Positions 249 through 20,658 of a DNA stretch of 20,658 bases are shown one piece after another (within the stretch, counting starts at the first letter, position 1; each line of letters begins with the position of its first letter). The position numbers and the translations under genes were made by a program. The DNA comes from Candidatus Thorarchaeota archaeon (lineage in GTDB: Archaea > Asgardarchaeota > Thorarchaeia > Thorarchaeales > Thorarchaeaceae): the NCBI GenBank assembly GCA_048882385.1, contig JBHLRQ010000054.1, forward strand, positions 1 through 20,658, written 5' to 3'. The notes under the pieces were generated by a model that searched no databases, was not told the DNA's origin, and saw nothing but the letters and a program-made list of their open reading frames with translations.

Positions 249-1556
249 ATGAAGAGTCTCTGTCCGATATGTGGACGTCTTGTTGAAAATTCCGAAACAG
301 TGGAGGGTGAGAATGTCTATCTTGACAAGACCTGTCCTGAACATGGTCCTACTCGAACCCTCGCATCATCAGATGCGGAATACTGGAAGGAGGCTCTCAA
401 ATACAACAGACCAGGAACATCTCCTTTGGTCTGGTCATCTCAGATAGACAAAGGGTGTCCTGATGACTGCGGCATCTGTTCTGCACACAAACAACACACC
501 TGTGTTGGAGTGATGGAGATAACTGGACAATGCAATCTGAACTGCAACATCTGTTTCGCTGATGCTCCATCTGGTAGTCATGTTCCATTTGATCAGATTT
601 CTCGCATGATTGATGCCTATGTGTCATATGAAGTAGAACCAGAACTCCTGCAATTGAGTGGAGGCGAACCAACTCTTCATCCAGACATTCTTGAGATTGT
701 TGGCTATGCAAAGACCCTTGGTATCCAAGATGTCGCTGTTTCAACAAACGGTCTGAGGCTGCTTGAAGAAGATTTTGCAGTAGAACTGGCAAAGACAGAC
801 CCAGTGATCTATCTCCAATTCGACACCTTTGATTCAAAAGTATCACAATTCATTCGAGGAAGAGACCTCGTCAATGAGAAGAAACGTGTTGTTGAGGTAT
901 GTAACGAACTGGGAATGACCACAGTTCTTGTTCCTACACTGATCAAGGGTATCAATGACCATGAGATTGGAAAATTGGTTCACTATGCTTTGGCTCAGAA
1001 GAAGGTCTTTGGTGTCAACTTCCAACCGGTTGCACTGACTGGAAGGATAGGAGTTCCTGAAATCTCAGCGATCTCGCTTCCCAAAGTTCTGAATGCAATC
1101 GAAATTCAGACAAACGGAATATTGGAGAAGAGTGACTTTCGCCCAATACCTTGTCCACATCCTCATTGCACTGCAATATCGTATGTATTGGTTGATGACC
1201 ATAAGGTGACACCACTAACTGACATCGTAAATGTTGACGAGTATATAGACTATGCACGAGACCGTACTCTAGTGAAAGAAGCTGTGCTGATGGATGAGGC
1301 GTTCAAGAGCCTATTCTCTACACGAGCTGTCCCAGGAACCGAGAGTAATCTGGAAGCATTCTGTGATGCATGTGGAATGACTATTCCTGAGGTCATAGGG
1401 AAATCTGTGAAGATAGTATCAGTTCATGCATTTATGGATCGTCAGACTTACCAGCTTGAGCGAGCCCAGAAGTGTTGTATCCATATCATTCAGCCTGATG
1501 GGAAGATGATTCCATTCTGTAACTATAACATGTTTCGAAGACATCAGGAGGGCTGA
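249..1556 (+). CDS. Radical SAM protein, tetraether lipid synthase (Tes/GDGT-MAS, MJ0619/COG1964)-like
   Basis: N-terminal rubredoxin-like SLCPIC...KTCPEHG, auxiliary cluster motif GCPDDCGICSAH, rSAM CNLNCNIC, SGGEPT, internal PCPHPHC, and C-terminal KCCIH...PDGKMIPFCNYN. This full motif set is characteristic of the family. Confidence 0.85.
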   Translation: MKSLCPICGRLVENSETVEGENVYLDKTCPEHGPTRTLASSDAEYWKEALKYNRPGTSPLVWSSQIDKGCPDDCGICSAHKQHTCVGVMEITGQCNLNCNICFADAPSGSHVPFDQISRMIDAYVSYEVEPELLQLSGGEPTLHPDILEIVGYAKTLGIQDVAVSTNGLRLLEEDFAVELAKTDPVIYLQFDTFDSKVSQFIRGRDLVNEKKRVVEVCNELGMTTVLVPTLIKGINDHEIGKLVHYALAQKKVFGVNFQPVALTGRIGVPEISAISLPKVLNAIEIQTNGILEKSDFRPIPCPHPHCTAISYVLVDDHKVTPLTDIVNVDEYIDYARDRTLVKEAVLMDEAFKSLFSTRAVPGTESNLEAFCDACGMTIPEVIGKSVKIVSVHAFMDRQTYQLERAQKCCIHIIQPDGKMIPFCNYNMFRRHQEG

Positions 1557-10885: not shown

Positions 10886-11752
10886 CTAGGTGCTAAATTC
10901 AGCTTTCCCATGTGTCAAAACTAGAATGTCATTCTCATCTCTCGTTTCAAAATGCACAACCTGTAATCCTTCTTCATTTACTCCTCCATCATATACCTCT
11001 GTCGTGATGGTCTGATCAAGCAATACAGGACTGGAGAAACGAACGCTCATACTCTTCAACCGAGTTGGATCTCCATTGAGTAGTCCATCAACAATCACCT
11101 GAGAAGCCATCGCCATTGTGCATAAACCATGAAGGATTGCTCTGGGAAGTCCTACACTTCTAGCAATCTCATCGCTAACATGTATCGGATTGTGGTCCCC
11201 AGAAGCCTCCGCATATCTCACGCCTTGATCTGAAGTTACTCCAATACTCTGCTTCGTAATCAACTTCCCTCTCTTAGGTTCTTGATATTCAGGTGGAGTC
11301 TTCTTCTCTCCTTCCTTTTTCTTGCCCCTCACTAGTATACGGTAGTCCATCTGTACAACAATGTCATCATCTCGCTTGCAGTAAATCTCAAGATCCAATA
11401 TCTCGTTCACACCACGTGTTTCTATGTTGACAATCTTTGCTGTGGTGTGAATCTCATCACCTGGTCTGAGAATCCCTCTCCATATCATCCTGTGCTCAGC
11501 ATGGACAGCTCTCAGAATGTTGAAGTCCATATTTTCAGCATCATCACCTATCTGGCTCAGGATGCCCGGTAGAAAGACAACTGGATATATTGGAGGCGTA
11601 ACCGTTTCTGAGTCAGGAGCACTGTATCGAGGATTCTCATCATTTGTCCCTAACGCATATTTTTGTATGCTCTGCGGATCCACAATCTGAGAGTCCACAC
11701 GATACACCTTCCCAAGAAAATCTCTGTTCAGCTTTGTAGTTTCTTCGCTCAA
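10886..11752 (-). CDS. MaoC-family double hot-dog (R)-enoyl-CoA hydratase/dehydratase
   Basis: YAEASGDHNPIH...GLPRAILHGLCT hydratase-2 motif, VRFSSPV and an N-terminal hot-dog half (VHAEH). TTG start overlaps the ligase stop. Confidence 0.9.
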   Translation of the reverse strand: MSEETTKLNRDFLGKVYRVDSQIVDPQSIQKYALGTNDENPRYSAPDSETVTPPIYPVVFLPGILSQIGDDAENMDFNILRAVHAEHRMIWRGILRPGDEIHTTAKIVNIETRGVNEILDLEIYCKRDDDIVVQMDYRILVRGKKKEGEKKTPPEYQEPKRGKLITKQSIGVTSDQGVRYAEASGDHNPIHVSDEIARSVGLPRAILHGLCTMAMASQVIVDGLLNGDPTRLKSMSVRFSSPVLLDQTITTEVYDGGVNEEGLQVVHFETRDENDILVLTHGKAEFST

Positions 11753-13443
11753 TTTTGACCCTCCAACTTGACTATTTCTTCTTCCCTAAGGATTTTCTTG
11801 TGGAGCTTCATTATATGAGTCAATGGGAGCTCATCTCGGAACTCTACAAACTTGGGCACTGCATACGGTTTGACCTTATCCCTCAAAAACTCGATTATTT
11901 CCTCCTCTGAGATCTTGCCTCTATGCTCTTGCTCTAGCTGGATGAACGCTTTTACACGCTCGCTCCCAGGTCGTTCAGGGTCTGGTACGCCAATAACTCC
12001 TGCTACTTCAACTGCAGGATGTTCATGGAGGATGTCATCTATGACCCGACTGTAAACCTTGTTCCCTCCGACAATAATCATGTCCTTGATTCGGTCGACC
12101 ACTGTGAAGTATCCATCATCATCAACAGTTACCATGTCCCCCATTCTGATCCAACCGTCTGCTTCAAGACCTGAACCAGGAGTCGGCCAGTAGCCCAGCA
12201 TGCATTGAGGCCCCCTGACCCAGATCTCTCCAGTATCTCCATACGGGAGTTCTTCTCCAGTTTCCGGGTCGATGACCTTTACCTCCGTGTCTGGCAAGGG
12301 AACACCAACACCCCGCTTGACCTGCTTCATGAACCCAGTCACCTTAGAGAATGCAGAGATGTTGACTGAAACTCCACCAGAGGTCTCTGTTGCTCCGTAC
12401 CCCTCGCCCATAGGAACACCTGCAATCTTCTCGAACTCCTCTGCGAGCTCCGGTGGGAGAGCAGCTGCAGCGGAGTAGTAGAATATTTGCCCCTTCTTCA
12501 GTGGCATATTGCAGAAAACAGTGTAATGGGCAGGCACTGCGAAGACAATGGCAGGTCTATACTCGTTGATCACTTCTACTATCTTGACCATATCTCTAGG
12601 ATCCATGAGAAACATCTTGAGACCCCAAGAGATGCTTGCATGGATTGCCCAGTGTCCATATGTGTGAAATATGGGAACACAGATTGCAGTTGCAGCCTTT
12701 CCAACTATTCCAGCCTTCAGAGGGTCCATCATCCAGTGAACTGTCTGCACTACATTTGAGGTGAGGTTGTAATGTGTCAACATTGTCCCCTTGGGCACAC
12801 CCGTGGTGCCACCTGTAAAAGGAAGCAAGGCTATATCCTCTCTCGGGTTGATTTCGACAACTTCTGTGTGGGGCTCATACTTTTCGAGTAGTTCTTCAAA
12901 GCGGTAGTATCCAGGCCCAGAGATGTCTTCCATTTCGGGGAACTGATAGTCTGGGAATATCTTGGTAGGAGCATAAATGACTGTCTTCACTTCTGTGTGA
13001 GGTTTGATTTCGTTCACTCGAGGTATTCTCCTGTATGAACAGAAGACCAGCTCTGATTTACTCTCCTTGATCTCATGAAGAAGGTCATCGGTCTTGTGAA
13101 GAATACTCAGGGGAACATGAATGGCTCCTATCTTCATACAGGCAAAGTCGACAATGATGAACTCTGGACATGATGGCAGAACCGAAGCGACGGTGTTGCC
13201 CTTCTTCACTCCGAAGTCGACTAATGCGGATGCCAAGCGATCCGCTTTGTCTTTCAAATCTGGATAAGTTATCTCCTCATCTGCATACACACAAGCGATA
13301 TTTTTCGGAAACTTTTCTGCGGCCTCCTCCAAGAACGAATACACATTGATCTCTGGATATGGTTGCATCGAGTGCTTCAACTTGAAGGGTCCGAGAGAAT
13401 ATGATTTGAGCCAGGGTTTGTCTTGATAACTCAACGTAATCAT
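11749..13443 (-). CDS. Long-chain fatty acid--CoA ligase (AMP-binding)
   Basis: FTGGTTGVPKG P-loop, EGYGATE, GEIWVRGPQ, MGD, VDRIKDMI, VPKFVEFRDELP. Confidence 0.9.
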   Translation of the reverse strand: MITLSYQDKPWLKSYSLGPFKLKHSMQPYPEINVYSFLEEAAEKFPKNIACVYADEEITYPDLKDKADRLASALVDFGVKKGNTVASVLPSCPEFIIVDFACMKIGAIHVPLSILHKTDDLLHEIKESKSELVFCSYRRIPRVNEIKPHTEVKTVIYAPTKIFPDYQFPEMEDISGPGYYRFEELLEKYEPHTEVVEINPREDIALLPFTGGTTGVPKGTMLTHYNLTSNVVQTVHWMMDPLKAGIVGKAATAICVPIFHTYGHWAIHASISWGLKMFLMDPRDMVKIVEVINEYRPAIVFAVPAHYTVFCNMPLKKGQIFYYSAAAALPPELAEEFEKIAGVPMGEGYGATETSGGVSVNISAFSKVTGFMKQVKRGVGVPLPDTEVKVIDPETGEELPYGDTGEIWVRGPQCMLGYWPTPGSGLEADGWIRMGDMVTVDDDGYFTVVDRIKDMIIVGGNKVYSRVIDDILHEHPAVEVAGVIGVPDPERPGSERVKAFIQLEQEHRGKISEEEIIEFLRDKVKPYAVPKFVEFRDELPLTHIMKLHKKILREEEIVKLEGQN

Positions 13444-13464
13444 CTCTGACTAAGACACAAGTCC

Positions 13465-15339
13465 TCAATAAATCTGGTCTATAAGCCACTCAAGACCTAG
13501 TTCATTCAGTTTTTCCTTAGTAGGCTTGCCCTCCTGGTCCCAGCCACGGAACTCATAGTAGCTGTTGAGAATCGGGTCCAAGTTAACTACCTGTCCCTTT
13601 GCAGGTCCTTCTGGCATTGGGTCTTTCAAGAGCCTGGGTGGCAAAGTGTCATCAGATCGAGTCGCCCCTTCACGAATGTTGTACACTTTCTCCAGGTTGT
13701 AGATTCTCTCTCCAGTCTTTCTGAAGTCAGCAGCTGTGTATTCGATTCCCATCAGCTTGGACAGCAACACTGCCCAGTCCTCGGCAGTCATGACAATGCC
13801 CATGAATTTACAAGCGCCAACAGCATCAAAGATCTGAAAAGCATCTTCAAAATCCTTTAGAATCACTGACTTCTCAGGAATCTCTTTCTGTGGGTCTCCT
13901 ACGTCTGCGTCATCTACAACCATAAATGGCATTGATAGAAAGGCTGGTCCCTCTATCCAAGCTGTGATGTGGTCCCCTCCACGGTTAGCTGTAGCATAGG
14001 CGAGTCCAGTAATCTTTGCAGCACGACTGTCATATGCAGGAAGTTCTAATCCCTTCACATGCATCGCGAAGTGCTCAGAACCTTGACCGAACCTCTCCGC
14101 CATTCTCTTTGTCCCCAAGGCTAAGATGTCCCCAAATCCTTCGCGCATGGCAATCTTTGGTACAATGTCAACTATGATGTCTTTGTCTCCGAACCTGAAC
14201 TCAAGACCTCCTGTATCCTCTGTAGTTATGATTCCCTTCTCAAAGCACTCCATGACAAAGGCCACTGATGTTCCCGCGGAAATCACATCTAGACCATAAT
14301 CATTACACAGGAAATGTGCCATGGAGATTGCCTCAAGGTCATCGACCCCGCATATACTGCCAAACGCACCGATGGTTTCGTACTCAGGTCCCTCTCCCCT
14401 TATTTTTCCCTCTTTGCTACCTTTGATATCTGCAATTCTACCACATGCAATTGGGCAAGCAAAACAGGGCTTGCGTTCCACAAGTATGGTGTCATTTAGT
14501 GCAGTCCCATTGATGTTCTCGGCTCCCTCGAATATTCCAGTCTGGAAGTTTCGTGTGGGCAGTCCTCCTACTACTTGACATAGGTCTACCATTGTGGCAG
14601 TTCCATATGTTTCAAGAGTCATTTTGAGAATACTCTGGTTTACCCAGTCGAACCTTTTCTTGGCTTCAGTCCGGTACGCCTCTGGATTTGCAACAGGAAT
14701 CTGTGCCTTTCCATAGGATACTACTGCCTTCAGGTTCTTTGACCCCATCACTGTTCCAAGGCCACACCTTCCAGCAGCACGACCGTAATACTTCTCGTCA
14801 CAGTCGTTCATGATAGCAGCGTAAAGAACCCCATTCTCTCCTGCAGGACCAATACAGGAAACATTGTGCTTGGGTCCATGTTTCTCCTTCAGGATTCTTG
14901 TTGTTTCGGATGTAGTCTTCCCCCAGATTTCAGCAGCATCTCTGAGTTCGGCTTTCCCATCTTCAGTAAGAAGGTAGACGGGTTTTGGAGAGATTCCCTC
15001 GAAGATGATACCATCAAATCCTGACCTCTTGAAGTCCTTCGCCCAAAAGCCTGCAGAGTTAGCCTGACCCCAGAGGTTTGTTAAAGGTGACTTGGCCACA
15101 ACGCTATATCTTCCTGCACTTGGAGATGGTGTCCCAGTCAAGGGTCCAGTCATGAAGATTAATTTGTTCTCAGGACCCAGAGGGTCTATTCCCTTCACAG
15201 TTTCATTGATCAAATACCAAGTAGCAAGACCTGCGCCACCTAGATACATCTTCAGAATCTCTTCGTCTGGGAACTCCTCAGTTATTGTTCCATCAGTAAG
15301 ATTGACTCGAAGTATCTTGCCCATGTATCCCTTCAACAT
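13465..15339 (-). CDS. aor: Tungsten-dependent aldehyde:ferredoxin oxidoreductase family protein
   Basis: GYMGKILRVNL, KSPLT, IGPAGE, AAGRCGLGTVMGSKNLKA, CFACPIAC, GPEYET, GLDVIS, DDTLPPR, YYEFRGWD. Confidence 0.93.
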   Translation of the reverse strand: MLKGYMGKILRVNLTDGTITEEFPDEEILKMYLGGAGLATWYLINETVKGIDPLGPENKLIFMTGPLTGTPSPSAGRYSVVAKSPLTNLWGQANSAGFWAKDFKRSGFDGIIFEGISPKPVYLLTEDGKAELRDAAEIWGKTTSETTRILKEKHGPKHNVSCIGPAGENGVLYAAIMNDCDEKYYGRAAGRCGLGTVMGSKNLKAVVSYGKAQIPVANPEAYRTEAKKRFDWVNQSILKMTLETYGTATMVDLCQVVGGLPTRNFQTGIFEGAENINGTALNDTILVERKPCFACPIACGRIADIKGSKEGKIRGEGPEYETIGAFGSICGVDDLEAISMAHFLCNDYGLDVISAGTSVAFVMECFEKGIITTEDTGGLEFRFGDKDIIVDIVPKIAMREGFGDILALGTKRMAERFGQGSEHFAMHVKGLELPAYDSRAAKITGLAYATANRGGDHITAWIEGPAFLSMPFMVVDDADVGDPQKEIPEKSVILKDFEDAFQIFDAVGACKFMGIVMTAEDWAVLLSKLMGIEYTAADFRKTGERIYNLEKVYNIREGATRSDDTLPPRLLKDPMPEGPAKGQVVNLDPILNSYYEFRGWDQEGKPTKEKLNELGLEWLIDQIY

Positions 15340-15382
15340 CTTGTGTCCATCCTCGCAATCTTGTCTTGGAAACTTACTTCTA

Positions 15383-15832
15383 TCAGTCGTAAAACTCTGT
15401 TTCTATAGTTGTTGCACTTGAAACCAATTCTTTGGCTGCTTCAGTGGCTCGTAAAATCTTGGGCATATCTCCTTCAACTTTAGCCTGTCCTGAAAGCAGA
15501 GCTCGAATTGGATCCAACTCTTTCTTCAGAATCTGTTCCCACACGTCAATTCTAGCAGAGTAGATGAATTCTACCTCAAACGGTTTCCCTGATGATTCAT
15601 CCCCCTTCTTTAGGAGGGTGAACTCTTCATCATCCTTTAGAATCTGTGTGCCAGTACATTTACCATGGTATAGTCCAACCCATATCCTGATCTGATTGGT
15701 AAGTCCTCCGTGCGGGTCTACTCTGAAAATGAAATCACCTTCCCACCAGTCTGCTGCTTTTGCATAAGCTTCATTGGAGTTCACTGCTTTTTCAAACAGT
15801 TCCGCCCATTCTGGACTTCCGAATTTTACCAT
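15383..15832 (-). CDS. SCP2 sterol/lipid-binding domain protein
   Basis: FGSPEW...VNSNEAY...WEGDF, LYHGKC, WEQILKKELDPIRALLSGQAKVEGDM. GGAGG SD. Confidence 0.85.
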   Translation of the reverse strand: MVKFGSPEWAELFEKAVNSNEAYAKAADWWEGDFIFRVDPHGGLTNQIRIWVGLYHGKCTGTQILKDDEEFTLLKKGDESSGKPFEVEFIYSARIDVWEQILKKELDPIRALLSGQAKVEGDMPKILRATEAAKELVSSATTIETEFYD

Positions 15833-15847
15833 TTATCATTCCTCCCT

Positions 15848-16252
15848 CTATCTTTTGTCTAATACCAGTATTTTGGGCAGAGCCAGAAGTTTTCCATATG
15901 CCCGTCCCTTGAATCGAAGTTTTCTCTTACCAAATCGATTCTTTTTCATCATCATATGCATGACTGAATACTGACCATTACAGAAGAACATCAAGTCTTC
16001 TGGATCTGCAATCAACTCTAGGTCTCGATCCTCAAGAGAATCTCTTGAAACAGTGTACTCCCCGTCTTTTGCTACCAGATTTATCCAAAGTATCTCATCT
16101 TCCTCTACGTGGAGTCCGATATTGATTCTGCCCTCGAAAGAATCTAGTCTCTTTGTGTTCTTTGGATTCTCGCGCTTGTCTGCTATGATTCCGTCAATCA
16201 CAGATTTGATTGTCAGAAACAGTGTTTCTCTCTGTGTGTCATCCATCCTCAT
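15848..16252 (-). CDS. SCP2-like domain protein
   Basis: DLELIADPEDLMFFCNGQYSVMHMMM...KLRFKG...KLLAL resembles the SCP2 C-terminal pattern. Lies 15 nt upstream of the SCP2 gene. Confidence 0.65.
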   Translation of the reverse strand: MRMDDTQRETLFLTIKSVIDGIIADKRENPKNTKRLDSFEGRINIGLHVEEDEILWINLVAKDGEYTVSRDSLEDRDLELIADPEDLMFFCNGQYSVMHMMMKKNRFGKRKLRFKGRAYGKLLALPKILVLDKR

Positions 16253-16841: not shown

Positions 16842-17014
16842 GATTGATTCGTCACTCTACTTTCAATATAGTTCAATCTTCCAAGAACCAACACACGAAA
16901 GATAATCAGGAGCAATACTATTAGTGCTTGTCCCAGTAGATAAGAGAAAACAACAAAAAATAGCGATGCTGCTTCTAAACCTCTGGATGTAGAATTTCTA
17001 AAACTAGGGAACAA
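16826..17014 (-). CDS. Possible small membrane peptide downstream of tetR
   Basis: 62-aa ORF with one long hydrophobic stretch, filling the gap between tetR and the convergent gene. No recognisable motif. Confidence 0.2.
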   Translation of the reverse strand: MFPSFRNSTSRGLEAASLFFVVFSYLLGQALIVLLLIIFRVLVLGRLNYIESRVTNQSHEDV

Positions 17015-17579
17015 ACATCTCTACAAGATCTTTTGAAACAGTTTCAGGATCTATTTGATTTTCAAAATCCCCCGATATGAATAAGGATGAAAGGCCCTCC
17101 AATGAGGCAATTAGAATACGAGCCCTCCCTTCAGGGTTTGAAATGCCACATTCCTGGTACAGTTTCATTGCAAGATTCATGTGGTCTTTATACGATCTCA
17201 GCCATTCCGTACATTGGTCTTTCCTGTTTTCACCCTCCTCGTATACTTCATAGGAAAATCGACGAAATGAAGGATGTTCCATAAACATCTGAACCGAACT
17301 TCGGATGAACTGTGTCAGTTTTTCTTGAGGAGTTCCTTTGCTGATGATTTGCTTGAGATGCGGGCTCCAGAGTTTATTGAATCCTTGAAGAAGTGATTCG
17401 CAAGCAAGATCATACTTAGAGTTGAAATAATGGAAAACTGCACCTTTTGAGATGCCTAGTTCAGAGCAGATACTGTCTATACTTACCTTATGATAGGACC
17501 GATTGATGAACTGGCGAAATGATTCATTAACGATGTTCTCTTTGGTTTCTGGTTCTGTCATTACAACCAGGTTGGACAT
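17004..17579 (-). CDS. TetR/AcrR family transcriptional regulator
   Basis: ETKENIV...F...SYHKVSIDSICSELGISKGAVFHYFNSKYDL HTH. Start likely ATG 17579 (after GAGGT), or 17630 or 17561. The 17717 call overlaps the upstream gene. Confidence 0.9.
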   Translation of the reverse strand: MSNLVVMTEPETKENIVNESFRQFINRSYHKVSIDSICSELGISKGAVFHYFNSKYDLACESLLQGFNKLWSPHLKQIISKGTPQEKLTQFIRSSVQMFMEHPSFRRFSYEVYEEGENRKDQCTEWLRSYKDHMNLAMKLYQECGISNPEGRARILIASLEGLSSLFISGDFENQIDPETVSKDLVEMFVP

Positions 17580-17629
17580 GTCACTTGCTACCTCATTAGT
17601 TTCACGCTTCCTGCCTCTGGTCATAGTCA

Positions 17630-19018
17630 TCAATTCCGATATCTGTTGAGAATACTTCTGAAAGCAACTTTGAAGAACTCGAGATTCTTCATTTTGATCT
17701 GTTTCCAGATGAGACATGGTCTTGTATAGAATTTGTAGTATGCTCTAGTGAGAAGTCGTTTAATTACTTCTCGTGATAATTCTGGAAACTCCATAACAGG
17801 CTCAAGTACTGTAAATTCCGACCAATTAGACGCAGTCAGCCATCCATTCTCCCTGACCTCATCGTACATGGGTGTACCTGGATAGGGAGTACAAATTGTA
17901 AACTGAGCTAAATCAGGATCCAGTCTGCATGCAAAATCGATTGTAGACTCAATATCCTCTTTTGATTCACCAGGTATTCCCAAAATGAATGAAAGAACCA
18001 GTCCCAAACCCGCCTGTTTTGCTAGTTTCACAGAACGAATTATCTGGTTAAGCTGTATTCCCTTCTTTATCCTATCAAGGATTCTTTGGCTTCCTGACTC
18101 AGCACCAATGTACAGAGTATGACAACCTGCTTTCTTCAACCAATTTGCCATTTCTGGATGACGCGATAAGATGTCTGCTCTTGTTGAACAAGTCCATGTA
18201 ACTTCATCCATATCCATAATCATCTTCGAACAGATTTCTTTGACGCGTTTATGATCGAAAGTGAAGAGATCGTCAATGAATGTAACATCACGCACACCAT
18301 ATCGTTTTTGCAACAACTCAATTTCTTGCATGACATTCTCTGGAGACCTGCCTCTCCAGCGTTTTCCAGTGATTCTTGAGGATGAGCAGAATGTGCACTG
18401 ATATGGGCAACCTCTACTTGTGATCATCGGAGCAATTCTCTGATTTTTAGGAAAATAGCTACGCAGGTCCAAAAGATCATAATCCGGAAATGGAAGGTTA
18501 TCCAGACAATCGATATATGGCATGTCCGGATTCTTGATAATTGAATCTCCTCTACGAACCGTAGTTCCAGGCACTCCATCGTATTGCTGCTTCTTTTCCA
18601 TTCTTTCGAGAATGGCATTCATAGTTATCTCTCCTTCTCCCCTTACAACTACATCAATGTCTGGACAATCATTCAGTACCTGTTCATCCTGAAAGGTCAC
18701 GTGGGCTCCTCCAACAACAACAGGGATTGTTTTGTTGTGGTTTTTGACAACTTTGGCCGTACGATATACATCGTAGATAGAGGGGGTTGTCTGTCCGCTG
18801 ATACCAACCACATCTGGAGAGAAGGAAGACAGGACTGTTTCGAAATCCGGAATCCTGGAGTCTTTGAGGAGCCCATCGTGTATTCTTACATTGTGATTTC
18901 CATATTTCTTCAGATAGCTCGCAATGTATCCAATCCCAAGAGGAGGACTTGTATAATCGAAAGAGTTTCGTATGTCACAATTCGAAGATGGAACTGTCAG
19001 CAGAACTTTGGCGAAACC
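17630..19018 (-). CDS. Cobalamin (B12)-binding radical SAM protein (class B methylase-like), start codon anomalous
   Basis: Frame is open upstream of the 18811 call: GFAKVLLTVP...TSPPLGIGYIASYL...FSPDVVGIS (B12-domain N-terminus), then VVGGAH, VVRGEGE, TSRGCPYQCTFC, FIDDLF, GAESGSQ, TPYPGT. Confidence 0.88.
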   Translation of the reverse strand, partial: GFAKVLLTVPSSNCDIRNSFDYTSPPLGIGYIASYLKKYGNHNVRIHDGLLKDSRIPDFETVLSSFSPDVVGISGQTTPSIYDVYRTAKVVKNHNKTIPVVVGGAHVTFQDEQVLNDCPDIDVVVRGEGEITMNAILERMEKKQQYDGVPGTTVRRGDSIIKNPDMPYIDCLDNLPFPDYDLLDLRSYFPKNQRIAPMITSRGCPYQCTFCSSSRITGKRWRGRSPENVMQEIELLQKRYGVRDVTFIDDLFTFDHKRVKEICSKMIMDMDEVTWTCSTRADILSRHPEMANWLKKAGCHTLYIGAESGSQRILDRIKKGIQLNQIIRSVKLAKQAGLGLVLSFILGIPGESKEDIESTIDFACRLDPDLAQFTICTPYPGTPMYDEVRENGWLTASNWSEFTVLEPVMEFPELSREVIKRLLTRAYYKFYTRPCLIWKQIKMKNLEFFKVAFRSILNRYRN

Positions 19019-20539
19019 TCATCCCTCCACGAAGTTGGGTTTTACCATCGAATTCGATGCTCTCAACAGTACTTCCAAATCTGAAGTGCAAGATCCAACT
19101 AGCTGGTCCCAGTAATCCTTGTTGTGAATACACCCTGGATCTGGGGCTAATTCGTCTCCAAAATAAGCAATCGCTCTTGCTCGACAACCACCGCAGACAT
19201 GGCGTTTCTCGCAACTTCCGCAAGCATCTCTCAGAAGATCCTTATTTCTCAAACGTTGAAGAAGTGCGGAATGAGTCCATAGTGAGTCAAAATCCTCTTT
19301 TACGATATTTCCTATCTTCATTGAATCAATATGAGGGAAAAAGACACAGGGATAGATGTCACCATTTGGCTCAAGAGCAACGTAGAATCTTCCTGCACCA
19401 CAACCACCTATAAACTCAGTAAGACTTTGCATTTGTTTTGGGATTCGTGTATTGTTGAAATGAGTAGGAGATATGATCTCCTCTTGGTTTGTACATAGTA
19501 AATTAGCATCAGATGCAACTCTACCAAACTGAGGAGCAGTTGTCAAAACCTCTAACGAGGATTTTTCTTTGCTTGAAGCCCTTTTCCATAGTTCTTCCAG
19601 AAGATGTTCTCGTTCATCCGGAGTCAAATCCAAATCAATCAATTCAGCTCCTCTACCTACAGGAACCAGATTGTAAAGCATGAGCCATCTTGCTTTCAGA
19701 CTCTCACTCAGCGTGATAACATCATGAATTTCGCTGATATTATGTCGAGTCACAGTTGTAGATATTTCAACAAAGAGACCCTCAGATACACAATTCTTTA
19801 TTCCTCTAATCGTCCTTTCAAAAGCTCCAGAAACACCTCTGAAATTGTCGTGAGTGTCAGCATTGGCTCCATCTACACTGATTTGTACAAATTTCATACC
19901 AGCATTTTTGAAACGTTTGACTCGTTCAGGATTTGAGAACGAAATTCCATTTGTAGCAACTGCAACATAGATTCCTCGCTCGGTTGCTCTCCGAATTAAT
20001 CTGAGGATGTCGGGTCGAATTGTTGGTTCTCCTCCAGAGAATGCGAGAAATACAACACCTGCGTCAGCTAGTTTATCGACACATTCAAGCGCCTCGTTAG
20101 TCGACAGCTCATTTTGGTCCTTCTGACCTGCGCTTTCATAGCAATGCTTGCATTTCAGGTTGCAAGCTCTTGTTACGTTCCAGACTACCTGAAACGGAGC
20201 ACCCGGTGTAAATGGTCTTGTTACGCCAAATTTCGCAAGTCCACTAACTATACTTGACATAGACCTCCTGAATATGTTGTCTTCAAGCCCTCTCTCAATG
20301 TCATCTGATGTTGTTCCGAACGCCCTGGCACCTATTGCAAGAATCAAACGAGTGAGATATGCTGAAATCCTGCACAATCTGCATGCGTCATCTCTCTTGC
20401 CAGCGATGAGATCCAGAGCAACATTGAGGCGAGTGTCACCATCAGACATGCAGTTCCTAGTTATTGCTACCAGAAAATGCCGTATGAGTCGAAACGAAGT
20501 CAGGCTTGTTAGCAGACCGATTTTCGAATCCGTTTTCAC
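19019..20539 (-). CDS. Radical SAM/SPASM domain protein with N-terminal extension (GMGT synthase Gms-like architecture)
   Basis: APFQVVWNVTRACNLKCKHCY, FSGGEP, SPASM GCGAG...YPC...CGSCEKRHVCGGCRARA...DPGC, and N-terminal C...ACRLC. GTG at 20539 is preferred because the 20644 call runs through the promoter/operator. Confidence 0.88.
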   Translation of the reverse strand: MKTDSKIGLLTSLTSFRLIRHFLVAITRNCMSDGDTRLNVALDLIAGKRDDACRLCRISAYLTRLILAIGARAFGTTSDDIERGLEDNIFRRSMSSIVSGLAKFGVTRPFTPGAPFQVVWNVTRACNLKCKHCYESAGQKDQNELSTNEALECVDKLADAGVVFLAFSGGEPTIRPDILRLIRRATERGIYVAVATNGISFSNPERVKRFKNAGMKFVQISVDGANADTHDNFRGVSGAFERTIRGIKNCVSEGLFVEISTTVTRHNISEIHDVITLSESLKARWLMLYNLVPVGRGAELIDLDLTPDEREHLLEELWKRASSKEKSSLEVLTTAPQFGRVASDANLLCTNQEEIISPTHFNNTRIPKQMQSLTEFIGGCGAGRFYVALEPNGDIYPCVFFPHIDSMKIGNIVKEDFDSLWTHSALLQRLRNKDLLRDACGSCEKRHVCGGCRARAIAYFGDELAPDPGCIHNKDYWDQLVGSCTSDLEVLLRASNSMVKPNFVEG

Positions 20540-20575
20540 TCCACACTTCTTCCATTGCCGAATAACCAACTTAAT

Positions 20576-20595
20576 CATACCGACTAGTCGGTATG
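20576..20595. promoter_or_regulatory. Perfect 20-bp palindrome CATACCGACTAGTCGGTATG, putative TetR operator
   Basis: Exact self-reverse-complement read from the sequence. Lies between a TATA-like box and the probable GTG start of an operon ending in a TetR gene. Confidence 0.75.
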
Positions 20596-20618
20596 TCATA
20601 ACAGTAGAAGCTTCTTTC

Positions 20619-20628
20619 AGATATAATA
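20619..20628 (-). promoter_or_regulatory. Putative TATA box (TATTATATCT on - strand)
   Basis: TTATAT at 20626-20621, about 25-30 nt upstream of the palindrome, which would place the transcription start at the operator. Confidence 0.5.
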
Positions 20629-20658
20629 TCATTGACTGACGCAAAGGATGTTCTAACT

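Follow-up and report, generated by a model that had tools for sequence, protein, structure and literature searches.

The contig JBHLRQ010000054.1 of a Candidatus Thorarchaeota archaeon (assembly GCA_048882385.1) was analysed as one stretch of 20,658 nucleotides, which is called the window hereafter. Between 17004 and 20658 on its minus strand lie three reading frames whose Pfam domains are, in order of transcription, radical SAM/SPASM, B12-binding/Radical_SAM and TetR_N. The first is a gene of the type encoding Gms, the synthase of glycerol monoalkyl glycerol tetraethers (GMGTs); it spans 19019–20539 and encodes 506 aa, with a GTG start and a TGA stop at 19019–19021. The second, a B12-binding radical SAM gene of the Gmm type (17630–19018), has 462 codons if the one next to the gms TGA is taken as the first, and a TGA stop at 17630–17632, and the third is a tetR-family regulator gene (17004–17630; 208 aa, ATG start, TAG stop; PF00440). 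These genes abut or overlap: the B12 frame continues that of gms beyond its TGA, and a single A ends the B12 TGA and begins the tetR ATG. Upstream of gms stand a TATA box-like element, GATATTATAT (20621–20630, minus strand), and a perfect 18-bp palindrome, ATACCGACTAGTCGGTAT (20577–20594), which is a candidate TetR operator. Promoter, palindrome and the three genes form one minus-strand operon. An earlier interpretation made from the letters alone (the sequence-only reading) had listed a TATA box, a palindromic operator, an N-terminally extended radical SAM/SPASM gene with cysteines, a B12 radical SAM gene and tetR, tightly packed on one strand, and all of them were found where it had placed them.

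For comparison, 80 gms loci were fetched, and many of their contigs end too early to judge the downstream gene. Two of these loci, SMTZ1-45 (L001) and TM2M.152 (L002), are other close Thorarchaeota contigs. The nearest database relatives are from Candidatus Thorarchaeota as well, with 86% identity for the SPASM protein and 73–74% for the B12 protein, apart from one match of 100%.

Family placement of the radical SAM/SPASM protein

The reading frame of the SPASM protein stays open to the end of the window. A length of exactly 506 aa is shared by 14 of the 24 closest clusters, which begin with M/V-K-[TA]-D-S-K, and from this length and shared N-terminus the start was assigned to the GTG at 20539. 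In the resulting protein, the Radical_SAM domain (PF04055, 105 bits) starts at residue 121, which leaves about 115 extra residues at the N-terminus, and SPASM is matched as PF13186. The radical SAM motif CX3CX2C (C126, C130 and C133) is invariant in 54 sequences, and so are the SPASM cysteines C380, C398, C440, C443, C449, C452 and C470, the cysteines for two auxiliary clusters.

Gms is described as a radical SAM/SPASM enzyme that resembles AhbD and carries some 100 additional N-terminal residues (COG4001) (PMC11214058, PMC11186832; here and below, the two papers and one bioRxiv preprint are cited for the parts of them that were available). The published model consists of six helices, the radical SAM domain, two bridging helices, a beta-hairpin and the SPASM domain (PMC11186832), and the tested enzymes are those of Thermococcus guaymasensis (X802_RS00105), T. 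celer, Pyrococcus furiosus (PF0647) and Methanothermococcus okinawensis (METOK_RS04425) (PMC11214058, PMC11186832). The published lists also include PF0647 as AAL80771.1, Odinarchaeum LCB_4 and Bathyarchaeota B71_G16. In BLASTP, the window protein aligns with P0280, a protein of 548 aa named P. furiosus DSM 3638, over 485 aa at 38% identity (350 bits, pairwise E 1e-119), and the alignment begins at residue 9, so the extension is included. This match lies within the published Gms cut-offs (either E≤1e-80 with ≥400 aa, or E<1e-50 with >30% identity over >420 aa), here applied to a reference other than the papers' own.

The best NCBIfam hits of the SPASM protein are AhbD (TIGR04545; 264.1 bits) and NirJ2 (264 bits), against a cut-off of 500 for these equivalogs, and the B12 protein scores 253.7 bits for BchE (cut-off 481.35) and 249 for HpnJ (cut-off 577.6). 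Such hits could point to a tetrapyrrole module, in which an AhbD/NirJ-type enzyme of heme or heme d1 would be paired with a BchE-type cyclase. However, all scores are far under the cut-offs, and the P. furiosus protein shows the same sub-threshold picture for AhbD and NirJ2, which indicates that NCBIfam holds no Gms model and that the AhbD hits are no evidence for AhbD. The window protein has its radical SAM/SPASM core in common with AhbD and NirJ (TIGR04545, TIGR04055), but AhbD does not have the N-terminal domain that the window protein and Gms possess, and the window protein stands apart from AhbD-like outgroups in the tree described below. We therefore regard the tetrapyrrole module as very improbable.

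In the AlphaFold2 model (mean predicted local distance difference test score 88.1), the N-terminal part is predicted to form helices at residues 6–15, 17–26, 37–46, 54–73, 78–84 and 88–104, and the predicted hairpin at 354–367, the bridging helices and the SPASM part fit the description available in PMC11186832. The nearest solved folds to this model are PqqE, SuiB and anSME. Since PqqE, SuiB and also SkfB are among the nearest folds, and weak NCBIfam matches to mycofactocin, sactipeptide and ApyD maturases were obtained, a cluster for a ribosomally synthesised and post-translationally modified peptide was considered, with a SPASM maturase, a B12 C-methyltransferase and a cluster-specific TetR. 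These similarities are generic to SPASM proteins and all below cut-off, the family placement is with Gms, and no precursor gene was seen between the tightly packed genes, where small open reading frames (ORFs) were not searched systematically; a peptide cluster appears even slightly less plausible than the tetrapyrrole module.

A hidden Markov model of the N-terminal domain, built from 42 Asgard, Bathyarchaeota and other rows, matched 10 of 12 held-out N-extended proteins and none of 4 outgroups, and it matched residues 28–138 of P0280 at E 1e-10. The tree comprised 46 proteins (42 N-extended proteins and 4 outgroups, namely three AhbD-like paralogues and one TIGR04053 member). All 42 N-extended proteins, with that of the window, form a clade apart from the outgroups (ultrafast bootstrap/Shimodaira–Hasegawa-like approximate likelihood ratio test 97/95, branch 0.83), and this clade takes in Pyrococcus, Thermococcus, Aciduliprofundum, Bathyarchaeota B71_G16 and bacterial forms. 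Similarity to the P. furiosus protein, the shared N-terminal domain, the common sub-threshold profile and the separate clade together support the assignment of the SPASM protein to the published GMGT synthase family Gms, which had been proposed from architecture, and the enzyme would then be expected to form GMGTs. Grouping with AhbC/D, NirJ or peptide maturases, which the sequence-only reading had named as the result that would speak against Gms, was not observed; the protein groups with the Gms-type proteins and not with the AhbD-like or TIGR04053 ones.

Compared with the characterised Gms enzymes, the window protein is a predicted Gms from an Asgard lineage. It is like them in having a radical SAM and a SPASM domain behind an N-terminal helical extension of about 100–140 aa with six predicted helices, and in falling into the same clade. 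The N-terminal domain carries Cys30, Cys52 and Cys55 (residues 30–55 correspond to 20375–20452). Many relatives have a CxxC...CxxC pattern at these positions while the Thermococcales proteins do not, and the N-terminal cysteines may form a metal site, of which no discussion was found in the literature covered. In addition, the close clade of the window protein shares a conserved C-terminal tail of 24 residues ending in ...NFVEG.

Several Gms-type genes of unusual form were encountered among the relatives. Three proteins of 959–1018 aa (P0258, P0259 and P0306) contain intein domains (PF14528, PF14890). In Jordarchaeum madagascariense (L014, 72–1568), the gms homologue is broken by one in-frame stop into ORFs 72–458 and 561–1568, as a pseudogene or by an assembly error. 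In a Thermoprotei metagenome-assembled genome (MAG; L071, 5361–7622), an AhbD-like and a true TIGR04053 radical SAM/SPASM gene stand in tandem directly upstream of gms.

The B12-binding partner and its junction with gms

The second protein contains the B12-binding (PF02310, 82.8 bits) and Radical_SAM (PF04055, 100.3 bits) domains. In 14 of the 80 loci (L001, L003, L013, L015, L019, L023, L025, L029, L057, L061, L062, L064, L068 and L075), the gene directly downstream of gms, on the strand of gms, encodes a B12 radical SAM protein, and this position is kept across loci of Asgard archaea, Archaeoglobales, Thermoplasmatota and Thermococci. Synteny of the pair, which the sequence-only reading had suggested to check in other Asgard genomes, is conserved. 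The window enzyme is 74% identical to its counterpart in L001 and 37–40% identical to the gms-adjacent enzymes of Euryarchaeota, and in the B12-enzyme tree it groups with the other Asgard gms neighbours. The locus L075, labelled as a Cloacimonadota bacterium, carries a gms-B12 pair near-identical to that of the Thermococci MAG L068 (branches 0.056 and 0.039), maybe through a binning error.

Clustering of gms with gmm has been reported, Thorarchaeota included, and the neighbour X802_RS00110 of T. guaymasensis methylates GMGTs (PMC11214058). The enzyme pair is therefore not new, and it is less novel than the sequence-only reading had assumed. The supplementary tables of that paper contain no Thorarchaeota entry, and its Dataset S2 covers only genomes that also encode GrsA/B. 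Homologues of Gmm (Cgm, Pgm and Ted) include methylases acting on glycerol dialkyl glycerol tetraethers (GDGTs) and a desaturase, Ted, which is 31% identical to Gmm (bioRxiv 10.1101/2025.10.20.683597). With both methylases and a desaturase among these homologues, methylation is the most likely activity of the window enzyme by analogy with Gmm, but is not settled. Of the earlier Gmm-like claim, the domains and the published gmm position downstream of gms are present, and the methylase activity is read from synteny.

The alternative is that Gms is correctly assigned and the B12 enzyme is no methylase, catalysing instead a desaturation like Ted, a cyclisation or other C–C chemistry on the tetraether core. 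That Ted is so divergent and differs in activity is in its favour, together with the low identity of the window enzyme to the euryarchaeal gms-adjacent enzymes and the unresolved backbone of the B12-enzyme tree. Against this, the position downstream of gms is kept across the four groups named above, and the arrangement is that of the characterised Tg-gms/Tg-gmm pair (PMC11214058); we consider a non-methylase unlikely. A complex prediction for Gms and the B12 enzyme, with an own alignment for each, gave a score of 0.00, which says nothing either way.

Like gmm, the window gene stands directly downstream of gms and is coupled to it, but it has no canonical start and lies in frame with gms behind the TGA. 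The B12 frame continues in frame right after 19019–19021, and the conserved first strand of its B12 domain, A-K-V-L-L-T-V-P, begins at the third codon past this TGA. No in-frame ATG, GTG or TTG is present before codon 70 (GTG at 18811). The B12 gene of the sequence-only reading is thus present and tightly packed, as described, and is to be corrected in that a canonical start does not occur before that codon. At the junction (19001–19022, minus strand), an ATG at 19020–19022 overlaps the gms TGA but opens a different frame, which a stop closes after 15 codons, a TTC at 19013–19015 stands where relatives have ATG or TTG, and a conserved CTG forms B12 codon 6 (19001–19003). The junction of L001 (9579–9600) is built alike except that TTA replaces the TTC, so that the arrangement is found in two species.

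Between the window and L001, 14 of the first 30 B12 codons differ synonymously and 8 non-synonymously, and the differences fall 6, 3 and 18 times on the first, second and third codon position. This third-position bias holds from codon 3 on and indicates that the N-terminal stretch of the B12 protein is translated. Some B12 relatives begin with M-A-K-V-L-L or L-A-R-V-L-L. Among the 24 closest B12 clusters, 5 begin at the usual N-terminus and 13 were annotated 15–69 residues short by gene callers, and 29 of the next 36 clusters include the first strand. In L003 and L025, which are more distant Asgard loci, the ATG overlapping the gms TGA is in frame. The NCBI protein P0122 is 100% identical to the window B12 protein over 96% of its length; its start was annotated 15 codons into the conserved domain, and it begins with ML where the window reads IR.

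Several explanations for such a junction were examined and rejected. TGA closes 14 of the 21 genes of the window, which rules out its reassignment. For a selenocysteine insertion sequence or another stimulatory hairpin past the TGA, Rfam gave 0 matches in the window, and the 106-nt folds, with z scores of +1.19 in the window and -1.21 in L001, are not unusually stable. A +1 frameshift from the overlapping ATG could use TTT-C in the window, but L001 has no matching slippery site. Among the 120 listed of 405 matches (532–1696 aa), we found no natural Gms-B12 fusion and no protein with PF02310; the window's own protein apart, none of them extends over more than 48% of the region across the junction. 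The B12 enzyme would be produced, in order of likelihood, by re-initiation at a non-canonical codon, perhaps the CTG of codon 6, by read-through of TGA to a Gms-B12 fusion, or by some other route. In the literature searched, no mention of a start-less gms/B12 junction was found. A start-less B12 gene behind the gms stop, kept between species, is a small and concrete case for the study of non-canonical translation in Asgard archaea, and it bears on the question whether Gms and Gmm act as one unit.

The TetR regulator and the candidate operator

The regulator contains a TetR helix-turn-helix (PF00440, 41.6 bits against a cut-off of 24), and its 41 PDB matches are all TetR-family proteins. An orthologue with 81% identity is placed alike after the B12 gene in L001. 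Of the structures, 6el2, which we take to be Sulfolobus acidocaldarius FadR, is matched weakly (E 2.3e-4). The window protein has in common with such lipid-sensing repressors the TetR_N helix-turn-helix and a putative palindromic target near a promoter. However, the similarity to 6el2 extends over no more than the DNA-binding part, the ligand domain of the window protein matches no named family, and tetR is here the last gene of the operon that it would control.

The TATA box GATATTATAT is the same in 10 of 10 bases in the window, L001 and L002 and lies 26 nt upstream of the palindrome, which has arms of 9 nt each and is kept in both other genomes. In the alignment, the two elements keep an equal spacing from the gms start in all three Thorarchaeota genomes, and their flanks differ. 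The 16-bp core of the palindrome has one site in the window, against a chance expectation of 0.12 with up to 3 mismatches allowed. It occurs once each in the window, L001 and L002, always about 38–54 nt ahead of the start codon of gms; the remaining 78 of the 80 fetched loci lack it. From the TATA box, transcription is expected to start near 20598, and the palindrome just inside the expected transcript start would be a site from which a repressor can block RNA polymerase. TetR proteins bind palindromes of this type as dimers. The conserved footprint of promoter and operator thus supports TetR control of the operon, with the palindrome as the candidate binding site. The dedicated ligand-sensing repressor that had been proposed earlier is borne out in part by a tetR gene within the operon and by a TATA box and a palindrome that recur in all three Thorarchaeota genomes, and the control itself is deduced from them.

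It could also be that the palindrome is bound by another factor, or that TetR mainly controls other genes, for example the nearby fatty-acid and aldehyde genes. The regulator is linked to the operator by position, and its gene is the last of the operon and not, as is common in bacteria, divergently transcribed. Yet the palindrome is found once per genome and always before gms, its form is one to which TetR dimers bind, and the neighbouring fatty-acid genes are absent from L001. We take such a different factor or target to be a possibility on the doubtful side, ranking somewhat above that of a B12 enzyme without methylase activity.

Regulators recur beside the gms-B12 module in different lineages. 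For example, a Promethearchaeota MAG (L003) has a TetR gene (845–1792; TetR_N and TetR_C_7) directly upstream of gms on the same strand, with an inverted repeat at 1140–1167, and its product is not detectably similar to the window TetR in BLASTP. Genes of TrmB-type winged-helix proteins follow right after the pair in L062 (7174–7599) and L064 (5521–5958) and stand upstream in L019 (7651–7959), these three loci being from Thermoplasmatota and Archaeoglobales MAGs. Lipid methylation by Gmm homologues rises with hexanoic acid or penicillin G, and the genes of these homologues are located near AMP-binding enzymes, transporters and MarR regulators (bioRxiv 10.1101/2025.10.20.683597). In the available text of that preprint, TetR appears only as the laboratory tetR tool. 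No description of a dedicated gms-gmm regulator or operator was found in the literature as far as it was accessible, and SI Fig. S7 of PMC11214058 may show these neighbouring genes.

Proposed function of the operon and neighbouring genes

Putting these results together, we consider it fairly probable that the locus is a three-gene Thorarchaeota operon, gms-gmm-tetR, which combines a cross-linker, its B12 partner, TetR control of its own and translational coupling. Gms, a radical SAM/SPASM enzyme with a presumably lipid-binding six-helix N-terminal domain, would form the GMGTs, whose hydrocarbon core the B12 enzyme would subsequently alter, methylation on the model of Gmm being the likeliest reaction. 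As a dimer, TetR would bind the 18-bp palindrome that closely follows the TATA box, near the expected transcription start, and keep the operon that encodes it silent as long as no hydrophobic or amphiphilic ligand displaces it. Translation of the three genes would be coupled, and the B12 enzyme would arise either from re-initiation on a non-canonical codon next to the gms stop or from TGA read-through.

Several observations weigh against this reading. P0280 is linked to PF0647 through its species name and not by accession, the outgroups of the Gms tree are AhbD-like and TIGR04053 paralogues and not verified AhbD, and two Acidobacteria-type N-terminal domains of bacterial proteins were left unmatched by the N-terminal model (P0271 at E 0.35, P0330 with no hit). 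For the B12 enzyme, the Gmm assignment was drawn from synteny and not from alignment to a characterised Gmm, Gmm homologues vary in activity, and the tree behind its Asgard grouping is the one with the unresolved backbone. A tetR orthologue is present in only 1 of the 80 loci (L001), and the palindrome is linked to TetR by co-occurrence in two genomes, since the contig of the third (L002) ends inside gms. Finally, lipid data for Thorarchaeota were not found in the literature covered, parts of which were accessible. A more far-reaching version, in which one Thorarchaeota clade makes the cross-linker and its start-less partner from one frame, by fusion or non-AUG re-initiation, and switches the module by a lipid- or amphiphile-sensing TetR, seems improbable as a whole.

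GMGTs and their methylated forms serve as environmental and palaeoclimate markers. A self-contained operon with a predicted ligand-sensing repressor of its own and a defined candidate operator would offer a direct handle on how cells decide on GMGT production. If the proposal is true, GMGT formation would gain its first assigned regulator in the dedicated TetR, and the amphiphile-induced lipid methylation response would extend to Asgard archaea.

Downstream of the operon, the window holds genes for an aldehyde:ferredoxin oxidoreductase, an AMP-binding ligase, a MaoC dehydratase and two weak SCP2-like proteins (10886–16252). The sequence-only reading had taken a Tes-like enzyme, the SCP2 proteins and an acyl-CoA ligase in the same window as lipid context for the operon. 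This context is not conserved with the operon: the Tes-like, SCP2 and acyl-CoA ligase neighbours gave 0 hits in L001, the closest genome, where they are not next to the operon. The Tes match and both SCP2 matches are below their cut-offs, that of SCP2 being Pfam's. The aldehyde oxidoreductase, acyl-CoA ligase and MaoC genes echo the context of methylase genes in the preprint, but are absent from L001. The supposed Tes-like ORF (249–1556, plus strand) scores 323.1 bits for the NCBIfam equivalog Tes (cut-off 450) and higher, 349.6 bits, for TrsS, a (seleno)protein family (cut-off 490), and it matches the GDGT-MAS structure 7tol over residues 3–319 only. Its product is a radical SAM protein with an HMPTM zinc ribbon. 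About 44 nt past the tetR stop, a T-rich tract read directly from the letters, TTTTTTGTTGTTTTCTC (16944–16961, minus strand), is a possible archaeal terminator.

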